Of a DNA stretch of 55,634 nucleotides, positions 1,614-55,289 are shown in pieces. Positions within the stretch are counted from its first letter, which is position 1. Every line of letters starts with the position of its first letter. The notes beneath the pieces are model-generated. The model did no database searches. It saw nothing but the letters and a program-made list of their open reading frames with translations, and had not been told where the DNA came from. The position numbers were made by a program, and so were the translations under genes. Where the stretch lies: the IMG/VR virus record IMGVR_UViG_3300038317_000068. One strand, given 5' to 3'. Origin of the DNA: a virus.

Positions 1614-1652
1614 TTACATTAAATATATAAGAAAAAGCCAGCTTTTTTAAAG
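1614..1652 (-). promoter_or_regulatory. Class II phage promoter
   Basis: Minus strand: GCTTTAA-N17-TATATATTTAATGTAA, upstream of CDS 1584. Confidence 0.7.
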
Positions 1653-1659
1653 CTGGCTC
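1631..1659 (-). terminator. Rho-independent terminator whose hairpin carries the -35 box of the next promoter
   Basis: Minus strand: AGCCAGCTT-TAAAA-AAGCTGGCT followed by TTTTT. Confidence 0.7.
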
Positions 1660-1680
1660 ATAAAAAATTTATATAATATT

Positions 1681-1989
1681 TTATTTTCTCCATCTGTGAG
1701 TTCCTCGTTCTCGTATTAGTTGCCCCCTTTCGCCCCATAGGTAACTATTAAACTCACTCATTTCACCATACTTGATATTTTCCCCGAACTTTTGCAATGC
1801 TGGAATATCCTGTTCTTTAAAATATCGTGTGCCCCTTTTATCAAGATGATAAACTTTTGGCAACTGCTTACTTTTATCCCCTGTATAGTCGACCCACTCA
1901 TACCAGTGCTTTATTGTCTGAGGGCTTTTATTAATAAGTTTTGCCGCCTCTCCAATTTTATAATATTTTACACCATCTATAATTTTCAT
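1681..1989 (-). CDS. MerR/excisionase-type helix-turn-helix DNA-binding protein (102 aa)
   Basis: YYKIGEAAKLINKSPQTIKHWYEW is a typical HTH_17/MerR N-terminal motif. Confidence 0.6.
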   Translation of the reverse strand: MKIIDGVKYYKIGEAAKLINKSPQTIKHWYEWVDYTGDKSKQLPKVYHLDKRGTRYFKEQDIPALQKFGENIKYGEMSEFNSYLWGERGQLIRERGTHRWRK

Positions 1990-2013
1990 GCCACAGCCCT
2001 CCTTTCTTGTTTA

Positions 2014-2473
2014 CTATTTTAATTTTATTGCTTCTCCTACTGTGCCGCCCAGTGCATCCCATAAATAATTATGTTCAGCAACCGCATCATGAAAATCACC
2101 TTTTACCCACCTGTTAAGCATGTTCAATAATACTTGTTTGTCATAATAATTACTCTTTGTTACTTCAACAATCAGCTTATTGCACAGGCTGGGGGGTAAT
2201 GTCTTCCTTGCCCCATATTTCGCCATCCTTTGCGATAATTTTAGTATTCGCCATTTTGTGCATCTCATCATATACTTCATCTTCTGGTCTTACCCTTATA
2301 CTGTTATCACTGGCTATTTTTTCGGGGTTCTTAACCAGTTCCTCATATTTTGTATTATTTTGTTCAACTATTTTGTGCTTCGTCACAACATATCCTCCAA
2401 TACATGCAACTATAAGCACAACAACCGAACAAGCCACTGCCAACCGTTTTCCGTTTAACCTGTACCGCTTCAT
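2014..2473 (-). pseudogene. Membrane-anchored protein split by a +1 frame change in a C6 run (G6 on the plus strand, 2191-2196); joins ORFs 2177..2473 and 2014..2280
   Basis: The 460 nt are one base more than 153 codons. Removing one C gives a continuous ...GEIWGKEDITPSLCNKLIVEVTKSNYYDKQVLLNMLNRWVKGDFHDAVAEHNYLWDALGG. N-terminal TM segment: LAVACSVVVLIVACIGGYVV. Confidence 0.6.
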
Positions 2474-2525
2474 AACTGTTCCTCCTTTTTAAAGTGTGGG
2501 GTGGGTTGCCAGCCCCTTTGTTTTA

Positions 2526-4238
2526 TTATCCAACTAACCAATCAACCATTTTACTTCTGTCAGCCTTATTGATTTTGCCATCTACAAGCATGTCAGCCAT
2601 CTCACCCTTTTCGTCTACAATCTCCCTAATCCTTTCATCGATTGTATCCTTGCAAACTATTGTTATAATATTTACTGTGCCAGTGGTTCCGATTCTGTGT
2701 GCCCTGTCTTCTGCTTGGTCTTTATTTGCCTTATTCCATGGCTCATCTAAGAATATAACTGTTTGCCCTGCTGTAAGTGTTAAGCCTGTGCCCATTGCAC
2801 CAATCGTTCCGATAATAACTTTACATTTATCATCATTTTGGAACCTGTCAACTTCATGCTGTCTGTCTTTTACTGTGCCTGTGATATATGCTGGGTTATA
2901 AACCTTAAGTTTTGCCTTTGCTATTTTAGTAACCTCTTCCCAGTTACTAAATATAATCACCTTGCCACCTTCTGCTGTGGCATCTTCAACAAGTTCAATC
3001 ATTCTGTCCATTTTAGCACTTTCAGCAATACTACTGCTTAAAATACCAGTCCAACCCGTCGCCTGTCTTAATCTTATAAGTTGTGCCAGTGGGTTCGGGC
3101 TTACCTTAATCTTATCAATATCTGCCTTTATTGCATCCCTTACCTGTTTATATAGTAAAGTTTGCTTTGCTGTCATTTCAACATATTCTGTTGTATGAAC
3201 CTTTTCTGGCAAATCAAGCACATCACATTTTAATCGCCTTAACATTACATTGTCAAGTTCTTGCCTTAATTCGGCGAGGTTCTTGTAACCAACTACTTCA
3301 TATCCACCATAGCCACCCATTACACAATATCTATTTCTAAATTGATAGAAACTATGATGTTCAACGTCCAACCATTTAAGCACATTATATAAATCAAGTG
3401 GCTGGTTCATAAGTGGGGTTCCTGTAAGTGCCATCTTGTAATAACTCTTAAGGTTGTGTATTGCTTTTCCCTGCTGGCTTTGTGCATTTTTACATTTATG
3501 AATCTCATCTATAATAACCATGCCGATTGTTCCATTACTGCACATGTCTTCAAGTTTTTTACTTACTGCCGCATCCCTTAAGGTTTCAACATTGGTAACT
3601 AAAAAATAATACTTACTGTAAATGCTTTGTCCATCTGCAATAAGGTTCAAGTCCTTAAGTCTATCCTTTACACTGCCAACTTCCATTTCGCCCTTTGCAT
3701 TTATAAAGCTACCTATTATATGCCCTTTCTCGTTGCTGTGTGTGCCTATCTCGTTAAGCCAGTTCCATTTTAAACCATTTACACCACACACAATCAAAGT
3801 ATGCTTAAACTGGCTTTTTCTTGATACTGCAATGTCTATCGCTTGCTTTGTTTTACCTAATCCCTGTTCATCACCGAGTAAAAATTTATTATGTGCAAGC
3901 CCATAATTAAATCCTTCAATTTGATGCTGGTATGGGGTTGTCTTAAATGTATAATCATTTCCGTCAACCTTATCAAACATTACTCGATTTTCAACTTTTG
4001 CCGCAACCTTTGTATTTACCTTTCCACTGATATTAATCTCTTGGTCGCTAAATAGTGCAACCACATTATTTATTTCAGCCACAGGCACTTCCCATTCATG
4101 AGTCGCTGGTATATAATGCCTTTTCGGTAAACTTTTAATCTTGCTTACACTATCAAGGCTATAAGGAAAACTCACATATAGGCTTTCTTTAGTTTTCAAG
4201 TTTGTGGCTTTTTTCTGTTTTATAGTTATCATTTTCAA
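2526..4238 (-). CDS. SNF2/RAD54-family DNA helicase or translocase (570 aa)
   Basis: Motif I DEQGLGKTKQAI; motif II IIDEIHKCKN; motif III LTGTPLMN; motif VI QAEDRAHRIGTTGTV. Confidence 0.9.
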   Translation of the reverse strand: MKMITIKQKKATNLKTKESLYVSFPYSLDSVSKIKSLPKRHYIPATHEWEVPVAEINNVVALFSDQEINISGKVNTKVAAKVENRVMFDKVDGNDYTFKTTPYQHQIEGFNYGLAHNKFLLGDEQGLGKTKQAIDIAVSRKSQFKHTLIVCGVNGLKWNWLNEIGTHSNEKGHIIGSFINAKGEMEVGSVKDRLKDLNLIADGQSIYSKYYFLVTNVETLRDAAVSKKLEDMCSNGTIGMVIIDEIHKCKNAQSQQGKAIHNLKSYYKMALTGTPLMNQPLDLYNVLKWLDVEHHSFYQFRNRYCVMGGYGGYEVVGYKNLAELRQELDNVMLRRLKCDVLDLPEKVHTTEYVEMTAKQTLLYKQVRDAIKADIDKIKVSPNPLAQLIRLRQATGWTGILSSSIAESAKMDRMIELVEDATAEGGKVIIFSNWEEVTKIAKAKLKVYNPAYITGTVKDRQHEVDRFQNDDKCKVIIGTIGAMGTGLTLTAGQTVIFLDEPWNKANKDQAEDRAHRIGTTGTVNIITIVCKDTIDERIREIVDEKGEMADMLVDGKINKADRSKMVDWLVG

Positions 4239-4278
4239 CCCTCCATCAAGTTTTATCGCTTATTTACTTTACAAGTAT

Positions 4279-4307
4279 ATTATATAATAATATGTAGTAA
4301 AATGCAA
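4279..4307 (-). promoter_or_regulatory. Class I (sigma-A consensus-like) promoter
   Basis: Minus strand: TTGCAT-N17-TATAAT, upstream of the SNF2 gene. Confidence 0.75.
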
Positions 4308-4317
4308 TAGAGAAATT

Positions 4318-4350
4318 AAAAAAAAACAAGGGGCTTTATTTGCCCCCTGT
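4318..4350 (-). terminator. Rho-independent terminator
   Basis: Minus strand: CAGGGGGC-AAATAAA-GCCCCTTG followed by a T9 run. Confidence 0.75.
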
Positions 4351-4353
4351 TTT

Positions 4354-5172
4354 TTACTTTGCTTCTGCTGTTTGTTCCTGTTTGTCATCTTCTGGCTTTG
4401 CTGGTTCTGCTGGCTTTTTCCTAAATGAAAATCCTTGTTCAAGCATTTCAACCGCTGTGTCATACTGTTCAGTCTTTGTTACTTTGTAAACACTATCAAG
4501 AGTCCAGCCATAAGTGTCGGGTACTACTTTGCACAAGTCCATATTTTTAGCACTGAGGCTCTGGCTGTTAAGGTTTATCCTTATGCCTTTTTTCTGTAAT
4601 GTAACTTCTGCAATATTTCTCTTGTCAACATATAAACCAACATATCCACCAGTTGCCCTCTTTACTGCACCCATCTCAACCATATGGTCAACCATGTTAT
4701 TAAACATTTGCTGTATTGCTGGGTCAACTGCTTGCTTTCCTCTGCCCCTGTGTTCTGGCTTGCTGTCTGCTGGTTTATTTTCTGAGGCTGGGGTTTCATC
4801 CTTCTTGTCTGTGTCATCTGCTGGCTTTTCGTTGTTGTTGGTATCAACTGGGGCTTCTTCCTGCTTTTCTGTTTCAACTATCTTGCCGTCTGCTGGGTTT
4901 TCTTCCTGTGCCTCGTGTAATTGTACCTCCATATTTCCGTCCTCCTTGTTGGCTTCTGCCACATTATTTTCTTCCTGTACTGCTGGGGTTGCTGGTTCTG
5001 CTTCTGCAACTAATTTCCACCATCTGCCTAATGTGCTTTCGCTTACCATTTTAGTTCCACCGTCTGCAAGTGTAAGTTCAACCTTGTCGCCTATTGCTGT
5101 AACTGTACCTTTCTGTCCGCTTACCTTTCTGCTTTCAAATACCTGTCCGAGTTTTACATTTTCCATTGTCAT
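4354..5172 (-). CDS. Early protein of unknown function with an acidic low-complexity centre (272 aa)
   Basis: ORF track; RBS AAGGGAG; preceded by two tandem class I promoters; central E/D/P/K-rich linker. Confidence 0.7.
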   Translation of the reverse strand: MTMENVKLGQVFESRKVSGQKGTVTAIGDKVELTLADGGTKMVSESTLGRWWKLVAEAEPATPAVQEENNVAEANKEDGNMEVQLHEAQEENPADGKIVETEKQEEAPVDTNNNEKPADDTDKKDETPASENKPADSKPEHRGRGKQAVDPAIQQMFNNMVDHMVEMGAVKRATGGYVGLYVDKRNIAEVTLQKKGIRINLNSQSLSAKNMDLCKVVPDTYGWTLDSVYKVTKTEQYDTAVEMLEQGFSFRKKPAEPAKPEDDKQEQTAEAK

Positions 5173-5235
5173 TATTAATACACTCCCTTTTAAAGTTTTT
5201 TAACTGTGTGAGGTTCATTCCCTCGCTACAATTAT

Positions 5236-5264
5236 ATTATATAATAATATGTAGGTAATTGCAA
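5236..5264 (-). promoter_or_regulatory. Class I promoter (proximal of a tandem pair)
   Basis: Minus strand: TTGCAA-N17-TATAAT. Confidence 0.75.
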
Positions 5265-5341
5265 CTCCTTTTTTAAAAATTCTTGAAGTTTTTTTTAAGT
5301 TTTTTTATCAGGGTTGCTTGTCTTTCTTTTACTGTAATTAT

Positions 5342-5370
5342 ATTATATAATAATATGATTATAAATGCAA
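5342..5370 (-). promoter_or_regulatory. Class I promoter (distal of a tandem pair)
   Basis: Minus strand: TTGCAT-N17-TATAAT. Confidence 0.75.
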
Positions 5371-5389
5371 TACCTTTTCATAAAAAAGA

Positions 5390-5424
5390 TAAAAAAAATA
5401 AGGAGGTTCATCGCCTCCTTATTT
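5390..5424 (-). terminator. Rho-independent terminator
   Basis: Minus strand: ATAAGGAGG-CGATGAA-CCTCCTTAT followed by a T8 run. Confidence 0.75.
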
Positions 5425-5425
5425 T

Positions 5426-5758
5426 TTAACCAACTGCACTATTATTAAATTTTCCATCATCAAGCAAATCCTTTGCTTTCTGATATAGCCAATGCACCAC
5501 AGGTCTCAAGGCTTCTGGGTCTCTAATAAATACCTTTACCCTTGCTGACAATATAAAGTATAAATGTTCGCAAACCCAGTCCTCTTGTTCCTTGCCACTT
5601 TGCAATACTGCATCCTTTGCCTTACTTTTGGCTCTGAGCATTGCTTGGAAAGCAAGTGTTTTAAAATTATTCCATTCAGCAATCGCATAAACTGCAACCG
5701 CTACAACCACAGCGATAACAAATCGCCAGTCCCATAATACAGCACCGATGTTATTCAT
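5426..5758 (-). CDS. Single-pass membrane protein (110 aa); possible holin-like or lysis accessory protein
   Basis: N-terminal TM segment WRFVIAVVVAVAVYAIAEW; own class II promoter and terminator; lies directly downstream of the endolysin. Confidence 0.6.
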   Translation of the reverse strand: MNNIGAVLWDWRFVIAVVVAVAVYAIAEWNNFKTLAFQAMLRAKSKAKDAVLQSGKEQEDWVCEHLYFILSARVKVFIRDPEALRPVVHWLYQKAKDLLDDGKFNNSAVG

Positions 5759-5780
5759 AACATCGCCTCCTTATTTTTTA

Positions 5781-5819
5781 TTACATTAAATATATATTAA
5801 AGGCTGGCATTTATTAAAG
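5781..5819 (-). promoter_or_regulatory. Class II phage promoter
   Basis: Minus strand: CACTTTAA-N17-TATATATTTAATGTAA. Confidence 0.7.
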
Positions 5820-5843
5820 TGCCAGCCTTAAACTTTTTATCCA

Positions 5844-7100
5844 TTACTGGATTTTAATCTTTTGTCCTACATAAATTTTATTCGGGTCAGCAATACCGTT
5901 TATCTGTGCAAGATGTTGATAAGTTGTATGGTATTTTGAAGCAATTCTTGAAAGTGAATCGCCGCCTTGCACTGTGTAAACAATACTTGAAGGAGCGGTT
6001 GAAGTTGCTGAACCTGTAACTTTCAACTTTTGTCCTGCATAAATTTTATTCGGGTCACTTAAACCATTTATTTCAGCAAGATGTTGATAAGTTGTGCCAT
6101 ACCTTGAAGCAATGCCAGAAAGTGTATCTCCAGATTTTACAGTGTAATAATTATTACTTGCTGGGGCTGGGGCACTTACTGAGGCACTGCCACCAACTGA
6201 AATATAATCTGCACTCACGAATCCACCATGGTCACCAAAATAAATACTCCACCAACCATTCGATTTAAAATCAAGTCTTACCCTTGCACCCTTTTTAAGT
6301 TGTCCAATTACTGAATGATTTGTTCCTGCACCATTACGAACATTTAATACATCGGCTGTAACTGTGCCATAAGTGTTATTAAGATGTTCGATTGCTGGCT
6401 GTGGGGCTGGGGTTACTGGGGTCGGATTTACTGGGGTTGCTGGGGTATTTTTACCATATCCATTCAAACCAGCTTTTTTAATTATGGCATCAAAATCTTC
6501 ATAACTTACATCCAAATCACAACCGCCATTTACACCAGCAAATCTTCCACCAGTTTCTCCGAACTGGCTTTGCCACATTGCACAGTTTAAATCTGGCTTG
6601 TCAACTGCTGGTCTTGCGAACCAGAAAGTGTAATTTTTCAACTGGTCTGCATATAAATGATTAATGCACCAATCTTTATTCGTATACCAGCCAACATAAT
6701 AACCAGCTTTTTCCATTTGTGAGCAGAAGGCTTTTATAATATCTGTAATGGTTTGTCTCGAAGGCATCCCATGCTTTGCCTTATAACCATCAGCATCTTC
6801 CATGTCGATATATATAGGGTAAGAAGGTTTTCTGCCCCTTAATAGTCTCAACACATGATTTACTTCACCAGTAACACCTTCAACATGAAGAGCATAACTA
6901 TAAAGGTAAACCCCATAAGGTATTCCCAGTCTTTCACATTCACTCGCATTTCTTGCAAACTGGTTGTCATCCTGTGATGCTTCATCTTGCCCAAATCCAC
7001 ATCTTAAAAGTGCAAAGTTAAGCCCTGCCGCTTTTGCTTGTTCCCAGTTTACAATTCCATTGTGTCCTGATACGTCAATTCCTTTAAACACATAAATCAC
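5844..7100 (-). CDS. Endolysin: GH25 muramidase + SH3-like domain + two LysM repeats (418 aa)
   Basis: N-terminus [29 protein letters not shown] (GH25). Two near-identical LysM units: [43 protein letters not shown] and [43 protein letters not shown]. Confidence 0.92.
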
Positions 7101-7103
7101 TCC

Positions 7104-7421
7104 TTATAATAATTTCATAATTTCTGGGGCTATTTTAATCCCCACAAGTGCCAGAATTGCAATGAGTAAAACAACAATTATTTTACCCAGCTTATCCGTC
7201 AGTTTCCATGTTTTTTCATTGTGGTCTTGCAATGTTGCCAGCACGTCATTTTTAACATTGGAAAATTCAGTTCTTAAACTCTTGATGTCGGATTTTACTT
7301 CCACATCAACAACATTCATTTTCTTCACCTTTTCTTCCAATTTTTCTATTCTGTCTTCTACACTGCTAACCCGTCGAACCAGTTCACCCATAGAAACCTT
7401 ATTTTGATTTACATCTTCCAT
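7104..7421 (-). CDS. xhlA: XhlA-like lysis-associated membrane protein (105 aa from the internal ATG)
   Basis: ATG at 7421 follows AAGGAGGAGG; coiled-coil N-terminus plus C-terminal TM segment KIIVVLLIAILALVGIKIA; immediately upstream of the endolysin. Confidence 0.65.
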   Translation of the reverse strand: MEDVNQNKVSMGELVRRVSSVEDRIEKLEEKVKKMNVVDVEVKSDIKSLRTEFSNVKNDVLATLQDHNEKTWKLTDKLGKIIVVLLIAILALVGIKIAPEIMKLL

Positions 7422-7444
7422 GTCGACCTCCTCCTTGATTAACC

Positions 7445-7483
7445 AATCATTAAATATATAAGAAAATAAGATAATTATTAAAG
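7445..7483 (-). promoter_or_regulatory. Class II phage promoter (upstream of the lysis genes)
   Basis: Minus strand: CACTTTAA-N17-TATATATTTAATGATT. Confidence 0.65.
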
Positions 7484-7497
7484 TGGTTAAAAGGATT

Positions 7498-13243: not shown

Positions 13244-13245
13244 TA

Positions 13246-22466: not shown

Positions 22467-22495
22467 ATTATATAATATTTATACTGTAAATGCAA
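22467..22495 (-). promoter_or_regulatory. Class I promoter
   Basis: Minus strand: TTGCAT-N17-TATAAT. Confidence 0.75.
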
Positions 22496-26075: not shown

Positions 26076-26092
26076 CAATAATTCCTCCTTTA

Positions 26093-26125
26093 TAAATATA
26101 TAGTTAAAGTTATGCCTTTTTAAAG
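26093..26125 (-). promoter_or_regulatory. Class II phage promoter (downstream element truncated by the RBS)
   Basis: Minus strand: CACTTTAA-N17-TATATATTTATAAAGGAGG. Confidence 0.6.
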
Positions 26126-28689: not shown

Positions 28690-28824
28690 TGATATTATTT
28701 CATCCCCTTCTTTTTATTTGTGTTGTTTTTCCTATATAGAGAAACACCACTTAAATAACTTTTTCCCTGTTGAACACCGTTCATCAAGGAGTTGAAATGT
28801 GGTTCAACTTGTTTCCACACTATT

Positions 28825-28865
28825 ATTATATAATACGACGACGAACATTAAGTGTAAAGATAGTG
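28825..28865 (-). promoter_or_regulatory. Class III (late) promoter with a conserved upstream box
   Basis: Minus strand: CACTATCTTTACACTTAA-N17-TATAAT. Confidence 0.65.
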
Positions 28866-29034
28866 CGTCGCCGCATCTTTCTCATAGGTTTTTTATAATT
28901 TTTTATGATTTTACATATATTTTTATATAATATTCAAAGTAAATAATTTCACTGGTTGCAAAGTTTACCAGTTGACAAGTATATAAATATTCTATTTTTT
29001 ACCTATATTATTCCTTATGTTATTACTTATATGT

Positions 29035-29077
29035 ATAAAAAAAGTAACTACCTATGTCAATTCATAAGTAATTACTT
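29035..29077 (-). terminator. Rho-independent terminator closing the middle operon
   Basis: Minus strand: AAGTAATTAC-loop-GTAGTTACTT followed by a T-run. Confidence 0.65.
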
Positions 29078-29137
29078 CTCTTTTCTTCGCCCCTACCAAC
29101 TGGGGATTTTCTTTTGTACCGCCGCCCTTGCTGGGTT

Positions 29138-29277: not shown

Positions 29278-29862
29278 TTATTTCCCCCTTTCGATTACTC
29301 TTGCCGCCCACATGTCAGCACTATGCAATAATAAATATAATGGAGTCTCTTTGCCTTTAATGTCCTGCCCTGCTGGAGTATATAAACCATTATGATATAA
29401 TATTGCATTATATTCATCTATGGTTAAATCTATATACTGGCTTATTGTGGTTACACTAATAAATTCATGTCGAATATTTAATAGTTTTTTATTTCCCTCA
29501 AATCCACCAGTTGGAATCTTTTCTGTCCTTACTACCTGTCCGCTTACTATTAAATTCTTTTCCTCATATGCTGGCACATAATAAGGTTCTCCATTAAGTC
29601 CCATTTTACCAATGTCATGAAGTAAACCTGTAATCTTTATTGAATTTTCGTCTACCCCTGCATTAAGTGCCTCGTTCATCTTTGTCATAGTTTCATATAC
29701 ATTAAGGCTGTGTTCTGCCAACCCTCCCTCTTTTGCAAGATGATATTTACTACTACATGGGGCTTCATAAAATCCATGTATAGCCATATACAATGTCAGT
29801 TCTGCAATTCCTTTCCTTTCTGTACTGTGTAAAAGATTCATAATTTTATCTTTATTTACCAT
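29278..29862 (-). CDS. HD-domain phosphohydrolase (YhaM-type HD, 194 aa)
   Basis: KYHLAKEGGLAEHSLNV and ITGLLHDIGK. Confidence 0.8.
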   Translation of the reverse strand: MVNKDKIMNLLHSTERKGIAELTLYMAIHGFYEAPCSSKYHLAKEGGLAEHSLNVYETMTKMNEALNAGVDENSIKITGLLHDIGKMGLNGEPYYVPAYEEKNLIVSGQVVRTEKIPTGGFEGNKKLLNIRHEFISVTTISQYIDLTIDEYNAILYHNGLYTPAGQDIKGKETPLYLLLHSADMWAARVIERGK

Positions 29863-30352
29863 TATTATCCTCCTCTGGATTAATAAATTTACTTTTACAT
29901 TGTTGTCGCCCTTTTAAGATTACCATCATATTTGATATCGCCTGTGCCTTTAACTTTTTAATGCTGTCCTCACTACAATTTAAATCCAATGCTATATCTA
30001 AAATATCAGCACCATCAATATAATATTTCCTTAATATTTTACTGTATGCCTTGTCTGCCCTTTTTACATCAATGGTATCAATTATTTCATTTATTTCCTT
30101 TATAGTTACCTCCAATTCAGCGATTTCTGTTTGCACCTGTGTAAGTCTATTCAATTCTGTCTCTGTGTTGGTTACATGGGTTGCATGAGGCATTCCATCA
30201 AATCTCATGGCTGATATGGGTTTTGGTCCACTATTTAATATTCGTCGTTGTTCACTTTTTAATTTTAATAATCGTCCTTTTAATAAGCAGTACTCCCTAA
30301 AAAATTGTTCAATTTCTTTATAGGATTTTCTGCCGCTACCTTTTGCACCCAT
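29852..30352 (-). CDS. Putative late-gene transcription regulator (sigma-70 region-4-like; ArpU/RinA/DUF1492-type, 166 aa)
   Basis: C-terminal HTH ADILDIALDLNCSEDSIKKLKAQAISNM; coiled-coil centre; lies close upstream of the packaging module. Confidence 0.55.
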   Translation of the reverse strand: MGAKGSGRKSYKEIEQFFREYCLLKGRLLKLKSEQRRILNSGPKPISAMRFDGMPHATHVTNTETELNRLTQVQTEIAELEVTIKEINEIIDTIDVKRADKAYSKILRKYYIDGADILDIALDLNCSEDSIKKLKAQAISNMMVILKGRQQCKSKFINPEEDNNGK

Positions 30353-31122: not shown

Positions 31123-31161
31123 TTACACTAAATATATAGTATTTTCTGCTAAAAATTAAAG
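31123..31161 (-). promoter_or_regulatory. Class II phage promoter
   Basis: Minus strand: TGCTTTAA-N17-TATATATTTAGTGTAA. Confidence 0.7.
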
Positions 31162-31168: not shown

Positions 31169-31201
31169 TAAAAAAAAATAAGGGCTTTTGTGCCCTTATT
31201 T
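31169..31201 (-). terminator. Rho-independent terminator
   Basis: Minus strand: AATAAGGGC-ACAAAA-GCCCTTATT followed by a T8 run. Confidence 0.8.
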
Positions 31202-31405: not shown

Positions 31406-31452
31406 ATCTTTCCCTCCTTAAATTGGAGGGGGCTTTGTGCCCCCTGCTTACT

Positions 31453-36367: not shown

Positions 36368-36406
36368 TTACACTAAATATATAATAAAATAAGCCACTTA
36401 TTAAAG
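36368..36406 (-). promoter_or_regulatory. Class II phage promoter
   Basis: Minus strand: CACTTTAA-N17-TATATATTTAGTGTAA. Confidence 0.7.
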
Positions 36407-36422
36407 TGGCTCATTAAAATAT

Positions 36423-39240: not shown

Positions 39241-39279
39241 TTACACTAAATATATAGTAAAAAAGGGCACTTCTTAAAG
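39241..39279 (-). promoter_or_regulatory. Class II phage promoter
   Basis: Minus strand: CACTTTAA-N17-TATATATTTAGTGTAA. Confidence 0.7.
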
Positions 39280-39299
39280 TGTCCTTTTTAAAGTTTATA

Positions 39300-43089: not shown

Positions 43090-43128
43090 TTACATTAAAT
43101 ATATAGTAAATAACCAGCTTTATTAAAG
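43090..43128 (-). promoter_or_regulatory. Class II phage promoter
   Basis: Minus strand: AGCTTTAA-N17-TATATATTTAATGTAA. Confidence 0.7.
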
Positions 43129-43947
43129 CTGGTTATTAAAATCTTTTAAATTTTTTCTTATGCCTACAACCCACAACAAATCATCAGGCTGTATATATGG
43201 CAAACATTTTGCTTCATATATGGGGTCTAATAAATAGCCATGATATTCATTATTTTCATATGGCTTATGATAATCATAATCACTTTGTATGAGTGTAAGC
43301 ATTTGCCGCCATTCTTTCGGGGCATATTCATTAAGTCTTTTCAATGGGTCTGCACCCACTTGAACCCCGATTACTGGTATCCTTTTATTAAAATGCTTAA
43401 GCCCCCACAATACACCAGCACAACTCATCCCACTGCCTATCGGTACAATAATTCTTTTTACTTCATCTGGAATATTTTTTACTTGGAGTAATGTTTGTCT
43501 TACTGCACCCCAGCACTCCATTCCGAACGGTATTTCTGTCCATTTACTTTTAAAGGCATCTTCTCTCGCCCTTGCAATTATTACTGAATTATGCCATATA
43601 TCATCATGTATTATTAATTCAGCACCAGCGTCAATCGCTGTTTGTAGTTCGGGAGTAATACCGCCCCTTATTGTGTGCACCCTACAAGGGATATTCATAT
43701 ACTTTGCAATATTAGCAACAATCTCAATCTGTGGGCTTTGCCTTGCTCCTGCTGTAACCAACCCTTTCGCTCCCTGTGCTAAATAATAAGCACTTCGCAC
43801 CTTGCCACCAGCCACTCCAGCAAGTTCATACAGGTCATCCCTTTTAATAAAAATATCTCCTATCTTTTGCACAGGGGTAAGGGGATAATCCCCGTCTGCC
43901 CTTGCAATTAAAGTATCCAAATCAAATAAAGTATTTTGTTTCATCAT
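43123..43947 (-). CDS. PLP-dependent enzyme of the D-cysteine desulfhydrase / ACC deaminase family (fold type II) with an N-terminal QNTLF peptide (274 aa)
   Basis: Blocks align by eye with E. coli DcyD: IFIKRDD, GGKVRS (PLP lysine), LVTAGARQS, IIVPIGSGMSCAG, VIGVQV, GYLLDPIYEAK. The ATG overlaps the methyltransferase stop (ATATGATGA). Confidence 0.8.
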   Translation of the reverse strand: MMKQNTLFDLDTLIARADGDYPLTPVQKIGDIFIKRDDLYELAGVAGGKVRSAYYLAQGAKGLVTAGARQSPQIEIVANIAKYMNIPCRVHTIRGGITPELQTAIDAGAELIIHDDIWHNSVIIARAREDAFKSKWTEIPFGMECWGAVRQTLLQVKNIPDEVKRIIVPIGSGMSCAGVLWGLKHFNKRIPVIGVQVGADPLKRLNEYAPKEWRQMLTLIQSDYDYHKPYENNEYHGYLLDPIYEAKCLPYIQPDDLLWVVGIRKNLKDFNNQL

Positions 43948-47274: not shown

Positions 47275-47313
47275 TTACATTAAATATATATTAAAAAGAG
47301 GCACTTCTTAAAG
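47275..47313 (-). promoter_or_regulatory. Class II phage promoter; the -35 box lies inside the terminator hairpin of the SSB gene
   Basis: Minus strand: AGAGGCACTTTAAGAAGTGCCTCTTTTTAA-TATATATTTAATGTAA. Confidence 0.7.
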
Positions 47314-47332
47314 TGCCTCTTCCTAAAATATT

Positions 47333-47965: not shown

Positions 47966-48008
47966 AATAAAATCTCTCCTTTATAAGTTTATTTTTTATA
48001 AGTTTATT

Positions 48009-48188
48009 TTAAGAAAGGTTATAAACCTCTCTAAAAAACAAGGTTGCAACCTTTTCAAGGTCACCTTTTTTAAACTTGCTGGGGTATATAAGCACTTCCT
48101 TATTATCCCCGTCTTTCATTGTGATAACTGTCGCCTTACCTGTTATAATAGCAATTAAGGTTCTTATATTTTTAATTAGTGCCCCCAT
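48009..48188 (-). CDS. Small hypothetical protein (59 aa); below the ORF-track cutoff
   Basis: Translation: MGALIKNIRTLIAIITGKATVITMKDGDNKEVLIYPSKFKKGDLEKVATLFFREVYNLS; RBS GGAAAGGGGG. Confidence 0.5.
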   Translation of the reverse strand: MGALIKNIRTLIAIITGKATVITMKDGDNKEVLIYPSKFKKGDLEKVATLFFREVYNLS

Positions 48189-48218
48189 TTTATACCCCCT
48201 TTCCTTTACTTATTTGCC

Positions 48219-48257
48219 TTACATTAAATATATATTTTCTTCGGCAAGATATTAAAG
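48219..48257 (-). promoter_or_regulatory. Class II phage promoter
   Basis: Minus strand: CACTTTAA-N17-TATATATTTAATGTAA. Confidence 0.7.
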
Positions 48258-48264
48258 TGCAAGC

Positions 48265-48708
48265 CTAAAATTTTTTAATCTGCTGATTACTGGTTGCCAA
48301 CTTAATCCCATACTGTATATTACAATCAGTTTTCTGTGTTTCATCATATGCACCGAACTTAATATAACAATCGTGCATTATATCACCAAACTGTGCTGCA
48401 AACTGTTCTTCCATTTTATTAGTAAAAATAATCACTTGCAATCCATGATTAAGGGCTTCATGATATAATGCCTTTAAATCATCTGGCTGTTCTGTCCATT
48501 CCAGTCCTGCAAGGATTACCCCCTTGTTAAACTTGTCCCTTAACACTGCCGCTATAATTTCACTGGCTGTCATTTCTATTGCTGGCAACTTCCTTAAATG
48601 CTGATTAAAGCAACCTTTACAATTATTATGACAATCATTTGCAATAATGAGAGCCCCTATAAATGGGGCATCTTCTGTTCGTTCATGTGTTATACCTTTA
48701 ATTTTCAT
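48265..48708 (-). CDS. nrdG: Anaerobic ribonucleotide reductase activating protein (radical SAM, 147 aa)
   Basis: CHNNCKGC (CX3CX2C); adjacent to nrdD. Confidence 0.88.
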   Translation of the reverse strand: MKIKGITHERTEDAPFIGALIIANDCHNNCKGCFNQHLRKLPAIEMTASEIIAAVLRDKFNKGVILAGLEWTEQPDDLKALYHEALNHGLQVIIFTNKMEEQFAAQFGDIMHDCYIKFGAYDETQKTDCNIQYGIKLATSNQQIKKF

Positions 48709-48718
48709 AATATCACCT

Positions 48719-50482: not shown

Positions 50483-50711
50483 TTTGTATCAACTCCTTGT
50501 CAATCCTTGCCTTATCAAATCCTTTAATAACTGTGTTACCTTTTACCGTTACTGGGATTGATAGTACATTCATTTTAATTAAATCATCTTTTGCCGCTTC
50601 ATCTTGGTCAACATTCTTTTCGATAAAGCTAATACCCTTCTGGGTAAGATACTTTTTAAGCATCTTGCAGATAGGGCATGTGGTTGAACCATATACTTTT
50701 ATTTCATTCAT
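50475..50711 (-). CDS. nrdH: NrdH/glutaredoxin-like redoxin (78 aa)
   Basis: YGSTTCPICKMLKKYL (CxxC); thioredoxin-fold length. Confidence 0.85.
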   Translation of the reverse strand: MNEIKVYGSTTCPICKMLKKYLTQKGISFIEKNVDQDEAAKDDLIKMNVLSIPVTVKGNTVIKGFDKARIDKELIQNA

Positions 50712-50722
50712 ATTGCCACCTC

Positions 50723-51325
50723 CTAAATAACACCAGCCAACTTCACAGCAATTCTTTTCTTAAGGTATCCAACCCCTGCACTGGTCATTCCTAACATATC
50801 AGCAATCTCGGTATTTTTTAAAGCATGTGGTTCCTGCATTATTATTTTACAGCAAGCCATTTCTGATTCTGTAAGTTGTGCACTACATAACAAACTACTC
50901 ATTTCAATATCTTGATATTGTAGGCACTCAACTTCATCATTTTCCTTGGTTGCTATTATTTCCTCATAACTGTCAGCCGCATTGTTGGCACTTCTTTTAT
51001 CGTGTTGAAGTTGTTGTGTTTCTGTTCTTAATCTGTTATTTACATAAATACTGATTAAAGTTTGCACCTTTGCCCCTTTGTCTGGGTTATAATGCAACAT
51101 GGCTCTGTCAACTTCCTCCAGCATGAAACTTTCCTTATCTTCTTCAGTTAAACCCCAGTATTTATTCGTCTGAGTTTTAAGGTAATGTTCCAATCTACAA
51201 ACTACATAAGCAAGTTTTGCAGGGCTTTTATCCTGTTGGTAATTTTCAGCCACCTCAGATAAATCGTCAGAACCGATATAAAGATTTGCAAGTGTTTTAA
51301 GATTTGAAAAAGTATTGTTGTTCAT
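50723..51325 (-). CDS. Phage-encoded sigma-70-family sigma factor (200 aa)
   Basis: Region 2-like AMLHYNPDKGAKVQTLISIYVNNRLRTE; region 4 HTH LTESEMACCKII...NTEIADMLGMTSAGVGYLKKRIAVKL; transcribed from a class I promoter. Confidence 0.8.
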   Translation of the reverse strand: MNNNTFSNLKTLANLYIGSDDLSEVAENYQQDKSPAKLAYVVCRLEHYLKTQTNKYWGLTEEDKESFMLEEVDRAMLHYNPDKGAKVQTLISIYVNNRLRTETQQLQHDKRSANNAADSYEEIIATKENDEVECLQYQDIEMSSLLCSAQLTESEMACCKIIMQEPHALKNTEIADMLGMTSAGVGYLKKRIAVKLAGVI

Positions 51326-51417
51326 AAAAGAACCCCCCATTTTAAAAATTTTTTAAAAGTGTGTATAAGGTTTTACTTTGTTGGCAATAATATTAAGTTA
51401 CCCTTATTACAATATAT

Positions 51418-51446
51418 ATTATATAATAATATATTGAATTGTGCAA
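51418..51446 (-). promoter_or_regulatory. Class I promoter (drives the sigma factor and nrd operon)
   Basis: Minus strand: TTGCAC-N17-TATAAT. Confidence 0.75.
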
Positions 51447-51461
51447 CCCATTTTTTAAAAT

Positions 51462-52469
51462 TTATAATACTTTTTTTATTGCCTCAAATTGTTCCCATGT
51501 TAAATCATTAAGGTCTTTCTTATTGTCAATCATCCACTGTGGATAATCCAGCCTGTATATTAATTTATGAGGGCTTAACCTTTTTACCAGTTTATCAGTT
51601 CCCTTAAACCCTGCCTCATCTGGGTCAAGACCTGTAATAAGTGTTCTTACTGGTAACTCACTCAATAATTTATATTGATTTTCTGCACCTGTGCCCAGTA
51701 ATGCCACCGCTGGTCTTTTATGCACCCAGCAAGTTAAACAGTTGATAATACTTTCTGTGATTATTACTTCCTTTATTCTGTCAATGTTTTGGTAAATCTT
51801 ATCTATGCCATAAAGTGTCTGGCTTTTTACCGTTTCCTCAATGGCATTAAAAAACTTGCTTGCAACACTCCTTCGATAAATAAATAATACATTACCAGCT
51901 TTATCACACACTGGAAAAGTTAAGCAGTTAGTTTCGGGGTCATAACCAATATCAAACCATTCAATAATCGGGTCAGTAAGTTTTCTTTCATACATATAAG
52001 GATGAATGTTTCGATATTTATCCAATTCTTCCTCAGTAATAAAAGTCGGGGGTTGAACTTGCTTAACCTTTGCGTCCCTGCTAAAATTTAAGTTTAAAGG
52101 TTTTCGCTCTTCAACTTGTACCGTTACAAAGTTTTTCATCAACCACTTGTAACCAAACACTCCACCGTCTAAATTATGACCGAAACAATCGGATACAAAC
52201 TCTGGAAGACTTGTAGTATAGCCGCAAGTAAAACAATGAACTGTCCCTGCTGGGTAAAATTTACCGTTTCTATACTTGTCAACTGTACTTATGCCGCAAC
52301 TGGGTTTCCTTTCATGCCCCCCTCCATGTGCAATACAAGTAAATTGTATATCCTTATTCGATGGCTTTATATCATCAAGTAAAAATATCTTGTTAAGTGC
52401 AAGCTGGTTTTTTATTTCATATATTACAGTCTGCATATCCGTCAGTATAGGCACACCGTTTATATCCAT
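51462..52469 (-). CDS. dnaG: DNA primase (CHC2 zinc finger + TOPRIM, 335 aa)
   Basis: CIAHGGGHERKPSC...HCFTCGY; TOPRIM EVIITESIINCL and GLDPDEAGFKG. Confidence 0.85.
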   Translation of the reverse strand: MDINGVPILTDMQTVIYEIKNQLALNKIFLLDDIKPSNKDIQFTCIAHGGGHERKPSCGISTVDKYRNGKFYPAGTVHCFTCGYTTSLPEFVSDCFGHNLDGGVFGYKWLMKNFVTVQVEERKPLNLNFSRDAKVKQVQPPTFITEEELDKYRNIHPYMYERKLTDPIIEWFDIGYDPETNCLTFPVCDKAGNVLFIYRRSVASKFFNAIEETVKSQTLYGIDKIYQNIDRIKEVIITESIINCLTCWVHKRPAVALLGTGAENQYKLLSELPVRTLITGLDPDEAGFKGTDKLVKRLSPHKLIYRLDYPQWMIDNKKDLNDLTWEQFEAIKKVL

Positions 52470-52490
52470 ATTTTCGCCTCCTTTATATGG

Positions 52491-52529
52491 TTACACTAAA
52501 TATATAGTAAAAAGTTTCTTTTCTTAAAG
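52491..52529 (-). promoter_or_regulatory. Class II phage promoter
   Basis: Minus strand: TACTTTAA-N17-TATATATTTAGTGTAA. Confidence 0.7.
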
Positions 52530-52540
52530 TAAAAAACATA

Positions 52541-52572
52541 AAAAAAATAAGGGGCTTTTTACAGCCCCTCAT
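52541..52572 (-). terminator. Rho-independent terminator
   Basis: Minus strand: AGGGGCT-GTAAAA-AGCCCCT followed by TATTTTTTTT. Confidence 0.8.
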
Positions 52573-52583
52573 CTTTGTTTTGC

Positions 52584-53093
52584 TTACCAGTTACCTCTCA
52601 CAGATGGGCTTGTCGAACTTACCTTAACACCAGTATCAACAAATCCATACTCCCATGTCGGGTCTGGGTCGCCATTTACATAATCACAGTATCCATGAAT
52701 ATAACAATATTCCTTATGGCTTGAGCCACATGTGCAATCATCAGCAACTAACACATATCCAGCCCTTGCCGCATAAAGTGTCGTTATAAGGCTACCACTT
52801 GAATTATAAACATTTGTATCTCTCTTTACATTAAGCTTTGAATATCCGTCGATTGTTCCTGCTGGCAATTCGTTAAACTGCACAAACCCATAAGTGAAGT
52901 CAAATTCATTTACATAACCGAACCTTGGAAAATACATTAATGGGTCTTTGAAATAAATTGTGTGCCAGTTATCTTGATAGTTGTCAACAAAAATATAAAT
53001 TTCTTTGCTATATAACTGCCCGATAACATTGCCCCAGACGCCGTCATAAACATTGATTGAGTGCCCCGAGTTATTAACACACCAATTCGCCAT
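52584..53093 (-). CDS. Aromatic/Cys-rich protein of unknown function (169 aa); stand-alone transcription unit
   Basis: Start MANWCVNN follows GGAGG; own class II promoter and terminator. Confidence 0.6.
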   Translation of the reverse strand: MANWCVNNSGHSINVYDGVWGNVIGQLYSKEIYIFVDNYQDNWHTIYFKDPLMYFPRFGYVNEFDFTYGFVQFNELPAGTIDGYSKLNVKRDTNVYNSSGSLITTLYAARAGYVLVADDCTCGSSHKEYCYIHGYCDYVNGDPDPTWEYGFVDTGVKVSSTSPSVRGNW

Positions 53094-53134
53094 TAAAACA
53101 ACCTCCATATAATTTATTTATAAGGGCTTTACCC

Positions 53135-53173
53135 TTACACTAAATATATATTTTCGTCAGTGGATTATTAAAG
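53135..53173 (-). promoter_or_regulatory. Class II phage promoter (no hairpin around the -35 box)
   Basis: Minus strand: TACTTTAA-N17-TATATATTTAGTGTAA. Confidence 0.7.
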
Positions 53174-53211
53174 TACCTATATAAAAAATTTTAAGAGGGC
53201 TTTTATACCCC

Positions 53212-54525
53212 TTAAAATACCTCTGTGCCATTTACCGCAAACTCGCCCTCACTTGCCGCCTGTACTGGTTGTTCGCTGTGTGTTGGCAACATATTAATTT
53301 TCTTAAAGTACCCTTTGTCTATATCCCAGAAGTAAAGAAATTCCTTATTATTTAAGCCATACCTGTTCTTCTTAACTGTAACCTTAAGCCCTGCCGCACT
53401 TTGTTTAATACTTATTACTCTTGAACTGTTCTGCCCTATTGCATCGGCTTCCTGTATTTCGTCAAGTTCTGGGGTATCTGCTTCAGTATCACCCTTTTTC
53501 TTTTCACTCGCCTTTCTGTTTGCCTGTGCATCTGCAATAATAGGCTTACTATATTTTTCACTCGAATTATATAAATCTTCGCTTATATGTGCCAACTTAA
53601 TTCTTGTCGGGTCACCCTTTTCCGCCCTTGCATCATTCATAAGTGAAAACTGGTCAATGCCTATAATATCGGGCTTATACTTTTCAATCAAACCATTAAG
53701 CACTGGCACAGTCATTCGCTTACCACCTAAATCCTTCGGGGTTACTACCATAAAAGGAACAGTCTTTTCACTTAATTCATGCAACCAACTTGAATAATCC
53801 TCTGGGGTTAAACTGCCGAGTTCTTTGCCACCAGTTAAAAGGGATAAATTACTAAAGTGCTTTGCAAGTGTATCAAATCTAAATCCTATCATCAAGGCAC
53901 TCATTTCACCGCTGTATAATAGCACCCTTTTTCCTGCCAGCCATGCAGTACAAAGAAAATATAATAATATCCATGTTTTACCTTCATTGGTTCGCCCTAC
54001 AATGGTAATTAAATCTTCACCAGCAAGCCAGCCATGAGTTACTTCATCAAGGTCATCAAGCCCACTGCTTATCCCCAGCAACCCCTTACAATCTTGTCGT
54101 TCTTTATAACTTTGCAACCTATCCAGTGCATTCCTTACAAGGTCATATCCTTCATTAAATCCTGTCTGCATGGTTGCCAGTTCTTGAATTTTAGGTAACA
54201 AGTATTCAATCGCTTGATTTGTATCTGTTTGCACCAATTCCGCAACTTTATTCAATATTGGTACAAGTTTGCTGTATAAATGTTCTTCCTGTATCTTTTC
54301 AACAAGATACTTATCACTTTCGGCAACATCCAGAAATTCGAATTCGGGAAACTTGTCTGCCATAGTTTCGACGTCTGGCACATTGCCATATTTATTATAA
54401 TGGTCGATAATATATTTATATTCATCTGGATAACTTATAAAATAATCAGTATCGAGATTATTTTGTGTTAAAATATTAAGGCTTTGCTGTTTTATTACTT
54501 TGTTGAGGATTTGCAATTCGACCAT
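53212..54525 (-). CDS. dnaB: Replicative DNA helicase (DnaB family, 437 aa)
   Basis: GISSGLDDLDEVTHGWLAGEDLITIVGRTNEGKTW (Walker A); IIGIDQFSLM (Walker B); ends VNGTEVF. Confidence 0.9.
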   Translation of the reverse strand: MVELQILNKVIKQQSLNILTQNNLDTDYFISYPDEYKYIIDHYNKYGNVPDVETMADKFPEFEFLDVAESDKYLVEKIQEEHLYSKLVPILNKVAELVQTDTNQAIEYLLPKIQELATMQTGFNEGYDLVRNALDRLQSYKERQDCKGLLGISSGLDDLDEVTHGWLAGEDLITIVGRTNEGKTWILLYFLCTAWLAGKRVLLYSGEMSALMIGFRFDTLAKHFSNLSLLTGGKELGSLTPEDYSSWLHELSEKTVPFMVVTPKDLGGKRMTVPVLNGLIEKYKPDIIGIDQFSLMNDARAEKGDPTRIKLAHISEDLYNSSEKYSKPIIADAQANRKASEKKKGDTEADTPELDEIQEADAIGQNSSRVISIKQSAAGLKVTVKKNRYGLNNKEFLYFWDIDKGYFKKINMLPTHSEQPVQAASEGEFAVNGTEVF

Positions 54526-55223
54526 ATTCTTTTCCCCCTCTCATCTGGTCCTGTTATTTCAATAACTTCACTATCAAGTATCCTGCTTGTAAACCTTTGT
54601 CCTAAATTATTCATCATTTCTTCTTTATTTGCATTACTGGTAAAAATGTTCGCCCTTTTGTTTGCCAACCTGTAATCTAAAATATCCATAAGCAAATCAT
54701 ATTCATATTTTGATAAATCATTTGCACCAACATCATCCCATATTACAAGGTCGCTTTCCCTTAAGTTTTCAATAAGGTCATCAAGTTCTGGGTCTTTTAC
54801 ACTTATTGCTCGCTTGTTCCTTATTATAAATGAAATTACATTTATAAATACACCCCTACATCTAAATCCATTTCCATTCAGCAACTTTGTAAAATAATTA
54901 AGCATAATTTTTATCGCCCATGTGGTTTTTCCATTGCCGCATTGTGCACTATGAATTAATAAATTATAGCCGCCATCTACCCAGCTATATATATTATCCT
55001 TAATTTCTGCCAGCCTTTTAAATGCCGTCATGTCTGCTTCTATGGGTACAAGTTTTAAATTGTCGGGCTGTTGCATTGCTTTCGGTATCTGGCTTGTATA
55101 ACACAGATAATCCATTACCATATAATTAATACAACCCCTATAACATTCTTCGGGGTTATTATAATTCGGACACTTGCTTCGAAACCAGCAAGCATTTTTA
55201 TCGAAATTATAATTGTATGCCAT
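54495..55223 (-). CDS. dnaC: DnaC/IstB-like AAA+ helicase loader (242 aa)
   Basis: IHSAQCGNGKTTWAI (Walker A); LVIWDDVG (Walker B); located between the initiator and the helicase. Confidence 0.8.
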   Translation of the reverse strand: MAYNYNFDKNACWFRSKCPNYNNPEECYRGCINYMVMDYLCYTSQIPKAMQQPDNLKLVPIEADMTAFKRLAEIKDNIYSWVDGGYNLLIHSAQCGNGKTTWAIKIMLNYFTKLLNGNGFRCRGVFINVISFIIRNKRAISVKDPELDDLIENLRESDLVIWDDVGANDLSKYEYDLLMDILDYRLANKRANIFTSNANKEEMMNNLGQRFTSRILDSEVIEITGPDERGKRIWSNCKSSTK

Positions 55224-55250
55224 AAGTGTTCCTCCTTCTTATAAAATTAC

Positions 55251-55289
55251 CTACAATAAATATATAAGAAAATGGGGCACTCCTTAAAG
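55251..55289 (-). promoter_or_regulatory. Class II phage promoter (slightly degenerate downstream box)
   Basis: Minus strand: CACTTTAA-N17-TATATATTTATTGTAG. Confidence 0.65.

Follow-up and report, generated by a model that had tools for sequence, protein, structure and literature searches.

The virus genome recorded in IMG/VR as IMGVR_UViG_3300038317_000068 raises the question of what a rigid two-part element, repeated thirteen times ahead of its genes, does there and which factor would recognize it. The element, CTTTAA-N17-TATATATTTA, is named class II here, class I being a second promoter type of the same genome, and the window is the whole stretch of DNA that was analysed (55,634 nt). On wholly computational support, the thirteen class II elements are probably phage-specific promoters read by a sigma factor that the phage itself encodes (50723-51325, minus strand), seven of them with a predicted transcription terminator nested inside. 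An earlier account made from the letters alone, the sequence-only reading, had already suggested the promoter class; the nested terminator, the conservation throughout a phage family and a recognition code that links sigma factor and box are additions to it.

The class II element and the sigma factor that travels with it

An exact search for CTTTAA-N17-TATATATTTA returned 13 matches, all on the minus strand, where none was expected (100 shuffles). The number and positions of the copies, the constant spacer of 17 nt and the invariant TATATATTTA block described by the sequence-only reading were thereby reproduced. When up to three mismatches were allowed, no further copy with one or two mismatches appeared, and the seven with three mismatches correspond to the background level (the shuffles gave a mean of 4.5 hits at <=3 mismatches); the set is therefore a discrete one. 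RTGTAA follows the block in 10 of the 13 copies, exactly as counted before, the exceptions being 55251 (TTGTAG), 26093 (TAAAGG) and 7451 (ATGATT). All thirteen copies are intergenic and share the orientation of the genes, every one of which is on the minus strand, although coding sequence takes up 91% of the genome; a similar density of the motif inside coding regions, named earlier as a finding that would speak against promoters, was not seen. The sites lie directly 3' of stop codons. Their placement in intergenic gaps was correctly described by the sequence-only reading, but not the distance of 20-60 nt to the ribosome-binding site (RBS), which lies 3-33 nt 3' of the block. The -10 hexamer was set at TATATT/TATAAT because the relatives (see below) are aligned by their downstream TGTAA. 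It occupies block positions 3-8 as TATATT and ends 19-49 nt before the start codon, so the element can be written CTTTAA-N19-TATATT or, with the -35 hexamer aligned on TTGACA, TTTAAn-N18-TATATT.

Class I (TTGCAt-N17-TATAAT-ATAATTGTA) is host sigma-A-like and rigid. Seven intergenic copies were found in the window, one at 51418-51446 and the others with -35 boxes from 37154, 31831, 22495, 5370, 5264 and 4307 (minus strand); the copy at 22495 stands inside the structural module. The two classes are discrete, with no intermediates between them, and the contrast noted before between a -35-like box that does not resemble TTGACA and a second class that does is confirmed (CTTTAA against TTGCAt). Strong separate terminators (such as 4355-4321 and 5427-5393) stand immediately before several class I copies, the hairpin not lying over the -35.

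The open reading frame (ORF) at 50723-51325 (minus strand) encodes 200 aa from the ATG at 51325, the start chosen by the sequence-only reading and the one that fits the N-termini of the homologues, or 205 aa from 51340. Inspection by eye revealed region-2-like and region-4-like segments; Pfam and PHROGs gave no detection of the 205-aa ORF from its own sequence. When its AlphaFold model (pLDDT 76) was compared with the PDB using Foldseek, the top 50 matches were all sigma factors (sigma-32, SigB, SigH, sigma-E and WhiG included), and a profile of four sequences of the family likewise ranked sigma factors first in the PDB. With a profile of 127 homologues the matches spanned both sigma-2 and sigma-4 and were headed by WhiG (3e-10, residues 27-160) and SigH (5e-8), followed by SigF, FliA, SigB, SigK and SigA. 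Among these 127 homologues Pfam recognized GerE in 35, Sigma70_r4 or r4_2 in 20 and Sigma70_r2 in 7. As judged by predicted fold and profile, the ORF is a divergent, previously unannotated protein of the sigma-70 family with sigma-2 and sigma-4, in line with the phage sigma factor placed at these coordinates by the sequence-only reading. Its predicted recognition helix is MTSAGVGYLKK, and it is the candidate reader of class II. A predicted host sigma-A-type class I promoter (TTGCAC-N17-TATAAT, 51418-51446, minus strand) lies directly upstream of the gene, where that reading had also put one, and sequence evidence points to class I-analogous promoters before the sigma homologues of the relatives L128, L129 and MS1.

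An exhaustive search with hidden Markov models extended the sigma family to 364 clusters at 50% identity, of ~200 aa each; a word-indexed homologue search returned only 14 relatives. The nearest non-conspecific homologues are 53-58% identical to the window sigma. More distant members are gp74 of MS1 (KY629621.2), annotated as 'RNA polymerase sigma factor' (24.6% identity by tblastn), and a phiCTP1 protein annotated as 'putative response regulator' (34.2% by tblastn). In the nine relatives examined the primase gene is likewise followed by the sigma gene, with SSB and/or DNA polymerase further downstream.

According to DNA polymerase identity, the nearest cultured relatives are the Clostridium phages phiCTP1 and FA88 (55-56%) and the pneumophages Dp-1 and MS1 (45%). 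No DNA-level relative of window 40-55.6 kb was found among cultured phages by megablast, and the relatives were reached via proteins. At the DNA level, a long-pattern scan of IMG/VR yielded only near-identical genomes (92-99.7%) and one chance match (L126), and a short-pattern scan mostly single chance matches in AT-rich contigs. The same bipartite element was found in every relative examined that carries this sigma, none of them similar to the window in DNA. Relatives with a DNA polymerase 45-57% identical to that of the window have a 6-mer box followed by N19, TATAWT and RTGTA, and the hosts of the element-bearing phages comprise Clostridium (phiCTP1), Streptococcus (MS1) and Bacillus (Flasso). 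The element reads CTTTAA-N17-TATATATTA in L128/L133 (polymerase 54%), CTTTAA-N19-TATAAT with TG and then AAATGTAA in phiCTP1 and L129/L138, CTTAAA-N19-TATATT in L142/L135, (C/G)TTTAC-N19-TATATT in L130/L139/L140/L141, and GTTTAC-N19-TATATY in MS1. In the 108-kb Bacillus phage Flasso it reads CACTTAAAAA-N13-TATATGTAC-TTATGTAA, where the -10 region TATATGTAC is a poor sigma-A -10. In the L130 clade, some of the TACTTA(ACA) sites may be promoters of the sigma-A type (TTAACA-16-TATATT) instead. The motif search in related phage genomes that had been recommended thus recovered the same architecture in phages with the sigma, and the putative promoter class set apart by the sequence-only reading is not confined to this phage but family-wide.

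The covariation of box and sigma factor bears on which factor reads the element. In sigma-70, R584 reads position -31, with R584A preferring A:T over C:G, and E585 and R588 affect position -33 (PMC2613000). In the hhalign alignment the window helix MTSAGVGYLKK lies on sigma-70 VTRERIRQIEA (TSAGVGY on TRERIRQ), a register that makes S the equivalent of R584 and the second G that of R588. The -35 hexamer was taken as box positions 2-7, and 12 related lineages were compared. All 12 lineages obey one rule for the 584 position: an R there is accompanied by C at -31 (STTTAC), an S or P by A (CTTTAA, CTTAAA). For the 588 position, boxes that have A at -33 (CTTAAA) are found with N, F or H, and boxes that have T are found with G, K or R. 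Thus, helix TSAGVGY is found with box CTTTAA in the window and L128, as is TSAGVKY in the phiCTP1 type; TRAGVGY accompanies CTTTAC / GTTTAC (L145), SRAGVGH / SRAGVGD accompany (C/G)TTTAC (L130 clade) and TRASVRA accompanies GTTTAC (MS1). The box CTTAAA is associated with SSAAINY (L142), SPSAIFQ (L135), TSAGVNH (Flasso), TSAGVNW (L146) and SSAAVHY (L147). The boxes of L145 (CTTTAC) and L146 (CTTAAA) were forecast from the protein alignment before the DNA was read, and both forecasts were correct. On a neighbour-joining tree, drawn without support values, the R/C and S/A states are interleaved, which indicates several coordinated changes. Host sigma-A shows no such variation, and the covariation therefore suggests that the phage sigma reads the box; it favours the distinct specificity proposed by the sequence-only reading and argues against the other option given there, a sigma-A promoter with an unusual -35.

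Hairpins nested in the elements

In seven of the 13 class II copies the CTTTAA box forms the apex of a hairpin, and the 3' arm together with a T-tract fills the 'spacer' up to the -10. CTT closes the 5' arm, TAAn is the loop, AAG opens the 3' arm, and the U-tract ends 2-5 nt before the -10. The length of the spacer was therefore correctly given before, but not its character as mere spacing, as it would carry the 3' half of a terminator in 7/13 copies. These hairpins have minimum free energies (MFE) between -10 and -21 kcal/mol and z-scores between -4 and -9. A stem that has the box at its centre and runs for 10 bp or more without interruption is present in 5/13 copies, as compared with 0.3% of random positions, and only one of the 37 other same-strand CTTTAA sites has a stem of at least 7 bp.

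The arms differ among copies yet are complementary. When ten hairpins in the same register, taken from four phages, were compared, 94% of cells were found to pair and six of the ten pairs to change on both sides, a result reached by 0/500 shuffles and not approached by any slide; because the ten were picked for folding, this shows that structure and not sequence is kept and is silent on frequency. A protein-binding palindrome was ruled out, since the arms vary between copies.

A terminator scan of the gene strand flagged four of the nested hairpins (55257, 47281, 36374 and 1620), and two more were obtained as plus-strand hits only (43096 and 5787). A T-rich tract follows each nested hairpin, several of these tracts being short or interrupted. 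With a stem-loop and a T-tract, the seven have the parts of an intrinsic terminator and are predicted to act as such. Three hairpin-less copies (53141, 52497 and 31129) have a separate classical terminator 20-40 nt upstream; only at 48225, 26093 and 7451 is there no terminator, nested or adjacent. The same MFE test identified nested hairpins in 5/7 copies of L128, 4/6 of L142, 2/4 of L130, 2/5 of L140, 1/3 of L141 and 1/2 of L139, and in 0/8 copies of the phiCTP1 lineage; by eye, they were seen in several copies of Flasso and in at least one of L147. No known RNA family in Rfam matched.

Alternative explanations and a proposed transcription scheme

It is unlikely, in our estimation, that host sigma-A uses the elements as promoters that combine a weak -35 (TTAAnA at 17 nt or TTTAAn at 18 nt) with a good TATATT -10 and are kept uniform by recent duplication or gene conversion, while the phage sigma reads something else. 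A sigma-70 scan does score class II 9/12 as TTAAnA-17-TATATT, the phiCTP1 copies have a perfect extended -10 (TGATATAAT), the box of the L130 clade contains TTTACA, a 5/6 match to TTGACA, and class I is equally uniform, so that rigidity alone is no sign of a special factor. Yet the box varies between lineages along with the helix of the phage sigma, whereas Firmicute sigma-A retains the TRER motif; the element is kept in phages whose hosts are as different as Clostridium, Streptococcus and Bacillus, and it is inherited together with the sigma gene; Flasso has TATATGTAC, without a sigma-A-like hexamer; and classes I and II are discrete. The covariation also bears on a hybrid arrangement in which host sigma-A would recognize the -10 and the phage protein of 200 aa would serve at the CTTTAA box as an activator or a substitute for region 4, as in the appropriation by T4 MotA. 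Such an arrangement would suit a sigma-A-like -10 beneath a non-canonical -35, a covariation limited to the helix-turn-helix that reads the box, and the GerE/LuxR-type helix-turn-helix score of 35/127 homologues. It is nevertheless highly unlikely: the N-terminal half of the protein matches sigma region 2 by profile and fold, and a sigma-2 domain for core binding would be superfluous in an activator; moreover, among the 50 ORFs scanned with PHROGs at E<=1e-5, none matched a MotA- or AsiA-annotated family.

The variable-stem, constant-apex hairpins of 7/13 copies and many relatives, and the position of the element directly after stop codons, could also be expected if it were primarily a structural signal in RNA or DNA, built on a conserved loop (as a terminator, processing site or protein-binding 'stoperator'-like site), and not a promoter. 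This explanation is hardly credible, as box and TATATATTTA block are equally invariant in the six hairpin-less copies and in the eight copies of the phiCTP1 lineage, the second block is -10-like, at a fixed distance from the box and 19-49 nt before a start codon, an Rfam match is absent, and no PHROG annotated as integrase or repressor was hit among the ORFs scanned. A stoperator array was rejected, its defining features being absent.

Several points weigh against promoters read by the phage sigma, which remain the preferred explanation. The class II -10 (TATATT, and TGATATAAT in phiCTP1) resembles that of sigma-A and the TTTACA variant of one clade is near a sigma-A -35, so host sigma-A could use at least some of the sites. 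The covariation rests on 12 lineages and a neighbour-joining tree without support, and the CTTAAA group is a single clade that counts as one event. As regards the hairpins, 20% of random genomic 47-mers reach -8 kcal/mol; this cut-off not being stringent, the register-specific stem test, the only stringent one, was used. The choice of the ten hairpins for their folding is a further weakness, and since 6/13 copies and all eight of the phiCTP1 lineage do without it, the nested hairpin is not required for promoter function. Class II stands before both replication and late (portal, lysis) genes and thus does not fit a simple 'middle' class. Initiation at the class II sites, their reading by this sigma, termination at the hairpins and the timing are what we infer from the alignments, models and predictions described above. 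Finally, the genome encodes a second sigma-4-like regulator, a 166-aa ORF at 29852-30352 (minus strand) with a weak Sigma70_r4_2 match and PHROG hits to 'transcriptional regulator/activator'. Comparison with the L129 protein that carries Sigma70_r2/r4 revealed no significant similarity, the PDB gave no sequence match, and the ORF was not adopted as the class II reader; it follows class II copy 31129 and precedes the terminase genes, a position that makes it a candidate late activator.

If the class II elements are promoters for the phage sigma, the start of transcription would fall close to the first A in the conserved TGTAA. In this scenario host sigma-A holoenzyme would transcribe first from class I, giving the phage sigma, an SNF2-type helicase and small ORFs, and the new sigma would then bind host core RNA polymerase and direct it to the class II promoters of the replication operons, the portal-to-tail operon and the lysis genes. 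Early units would stop at terminators nested in or abutting class II promoters, as in the unit from 51446 to hairpin 47281, that from 37154 to 36374, and those from 5370/5264/4307 to 1620, and the genes downstream would be insulated from read-through and dependent on the new sigma. In the seven nested modules a single 50-nt stretch would terminate the upstream unit and initiate the next. With the box in the loop and stem top, and the 3' arm and U-tract in the sequence-neutral spacer, the two signals would be superposed as tightly as they can be.

The nesting might be functional in itself, a polymerase that terminates at the hairpin dropping or sliding onto the next class II promoter and reloading with the phage sigma. 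The closeness of the end of the U-tract to the -10 would place its release exactly onto that promoter; we nevertheless consider this extension improbable. If true, the module would be a hand-over point, where polymerase is recycled from unit to unit and sigma-A-initiated transcription gives way to transcription initiated by the phage sigma.

The proposed scheme would assign a function and a target sequence to a family of 364 clusters that domain libraries mostly miss and that records call 'hypothetical' or 'response regulator', and would provide a transcription map for widespread Firmicute siphoviruses, namely the relatives of phiCTP1, Dp-1/MS1 and Flasso. The one-to-one relation of two helix residues to two box positions amounts to a testable -35 code that could be useful for orthogonal sigma/promoter pairs in Gram-positive hosts, and a terminator built around a -35 box would be a compact insulator.

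The modules along the genome and their likeness to known systems

PHROG scans identified a siphovirus with a terminase-portal-head-tail module and an endolysin, and a replication module comprising DnaC-like loader, DnaB, primase, NrdD/G, SSB, PolA, clamp and clamp loader, RecA-like protein, ThyX and dUTPase. This gene context agrees with the sequence-only reading, which had the copies heading the replication, lysis and portal operons. Following the genes along the minus strand, to which all coordinates below refer, the class II module at 55251-55296 precedes the operon of the DnaC-like loader and DnaB and contains a nested hairpin at 55273-55296 (TGGGGCACTT-TAAG-GAGTGCCCCA, then TTTTCTT). The module at 53135-53173 precedes g04 (52584-53108, of unknown function) and has no nested hairpin; a stand-alone terminator hairpin (AAGGGGTATAAAAGCCCTCTT, 53193-53213) lies 20 nt upstream of it, after the DnaB-like gene. 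The leader of the transcript predicted from this copy (53141) shows a small hairpin, AAGGGTAAAGCCCTT, between start region and RBS (53095-53140). The primase gene is preceded by the module at 52491-52529, which is devoid of a strong nested hairpin and has a stand-alone terminator hairpin just upstream (GAGGGGCTGTAAAAAGCCCCTT and a T-run, 52549-52570). Beyond the sigma gene, the module at 48219-48257, before a small ORF and the SSB gene, has no hairpin and would for that reason be an internal promoter.

Nested hairpins characterize the next four modules. That of the DNA polymerase gene (47275-47326) has a 16-bp hairpin at 47291-47326 (dG -21 kcal/mol), and that of the sliding-clamp gene (43090-43137) a 13-bp hairpin at 43109-43137. 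In the latter the box supplies, with its TAA, the stop codon for the ORF at 43123-43947, a PALP-like enzyme, and coding sequence, hairpin and -35 box overlap (43123-43128). The module at 39241-39289, before a small ORF and the thymidylate synthase (ThyX) gene, has a hairpin with one mismatch (39260-39289, dG -10.4 kcal/mol), and the one at 36368-36415, before g27 and the ligase-like and resolvase genes, a 12-bp hairpin at 36388-36415. Only a weak nested hairpin is seen in the module at 31123-31161, which precedes g37, a DUF1599 gene, the 166-aa sigma-4-like regulator and an HD protein and has a stand-alone terminator upstream (AAGGGCACAAAAGCCCTT and T9, 31180-31197). A gene-free gap of 448 nt (28690-29137), with no class I or II motif, follows after the regulator ORF and precedes the terminase genes. 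At the portal gene the module (26087-26125) lacks RTGTAA and a strong hairpin, and its RBS starts 3 nt after the block; the module before a 105-aa ORF and the endolysin gene (7445-7483) likewise has neither RTGTAA nor a hairpin. The class II-headed units also include two after the lysis genes: the module at 5781-5833, between the endolysin gene and g72, has a hairpin at 5796-5833 (dG -18 kcal/mol), and that at 1614-1659, before g78-g80, an 11-bp hairpin at 1635-1659, then TTTCTT.

The ends of the window (1-98 and 55537-55634) are an exact repeat of 98 nt, and the relatives L092 and L121 read across the junction, which indicates that the assembly is complete, circular (or circularly permuted) and 55,536 bp long. 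About 770 nt over this junction (55486-55634 and 1-720) contain no minus-strand ORF of at least 40 aa and no class I or II motif, and close relatives differ in this stretch by replacements at window 283-446. Sets of genes for 7-deazaguanine (QueC/D/E/F and GTP cyclohydrolase) follow the polymerase gene in L130, L141, L142, L144 and L147. None was matched among the window ORFs scanned; the window instead carries the PALP-like enzyme, the DUF1599 'nucleotide modification associated' protein and the HD protein.

A literature search on transcription in Dp-1 or phiCTP1, or on this motif and promoter class, found nothing relevant. Within the family itself, MS1 gp74 and the phiCTP1 protein occupy the same place after the primase and have GTTTAC-N19-TATATY (MS1) or CTTTAA-N19-TATAAT (phiCTP1) nearby; unlike the present analysis, the GenBank records of these phages make no link between protein and promoter class, and that of MS1 annotates only sigma-A-like promoters. 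As for region 4.2 of sigma-70, the same two box positions covary here, and loss of R goes with A in place of C, as in the R584A phenotype. Unlike sigma-70, the phage sigmas have S/P/R and G/K/N/F/H at the two helix positions, the base at -33 is T or A and never G, and the spacer is 18 nt.

In Bacillus phage SPO1 a cascade of phage sigma factors is known, with gp28 for middle and gp33/34 for late promoters (PMC13401047). The scheme proposed here is similar in that host sigma-A early promoters would yield a phage sigma that takes host core to a separate, uniform bipartite class before replication and later genes. The SPO1 gp28 consensus is AGGAGA/TTTNTTT, whereas here the sequence is CTTTAA-N19-TATATT, the phage is a 55-kb siphovirus of the phiCTP1/Dp-1 type, the -10 stays sigma-A-like and terminators are nested. 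T4 MotA-box promoters also have a non-canonical box in place of the -35 above a sigma-A-like -10, and one class II copy reads TTTGCTTTAA, a resemblance only. The MotA box has its centre at -30, at a distance of 12 nt to the -10, and such promoters need MotA and AsiA, for neither of which a PHROG match was obtained among the ORFs scanned; this type of promoter was set aside. So was the hairpin promoter of N4-type virion RNA polymerase, a single-subunit enzyme encoded by the phage: its hairpin is centred near -12, the apex here is at about -33, half of the copies are hairpin-less, and PHROG found no RNA polymerase gene among the ORFs scanned.

The system that most invites comparison with the nested modules is that of the promoter-early stem-loops (PeSLs), composite terminator/promoter cassettes of T4-like phages, some subclasses of which have their stem-loop across the -35 or in the stretch from -35 to -10 (PMC2839356, PMC4122927). 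PeSLs have a host sigma-70 consensus and are early; they fall into five subclasses by stem-loop position, are often polyG/polyC, and cluster in ORFan-rich hyperplastic regions (PMC2839356, PMC4122927). Class II modules share with them a repeated intergenic combination of promoter and stem-loop terminator in an AT-rich region with an upstream stop codon, where the stem-loop can extend over the -35. Unlike PeSLs, they have the apex fixed on the -35 box and a non-canonical promoter (CTTTAA, not TTGACA), and they head core replication, portal and lysis operons.

PeSLs flank ORFans that can be exchanged. By analogy with the role proposed for PeSLs, the constant-box, variable-stem modules might double as recombination sites for cassette exchange, an extension that we likewise consider improbable. 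In the 93-96% identical relative L081 (IMGVR_UViG_3300038321_000320, positions 300-470), g04 (52584-53108), which has a module on either side in the window, is absent along with one class II module, and the break falls within the near-identical twin terminators that precede modules 53141 and 52497; among the few relatives compared, this is a single case of a cassette indel between repeated punctuation elements. At window 31413-31423 the 96.7% identical L037 (9312-9655) has an extra 343 nt with a small ORF, flanked by a duplicated ribosome-binding sequence (AATTTAAGGAGG) and not by modules. PeSLs and class II modules are analogous, not homologous, and punctuation of the PeSL kind would not be limited to T4-like phages.

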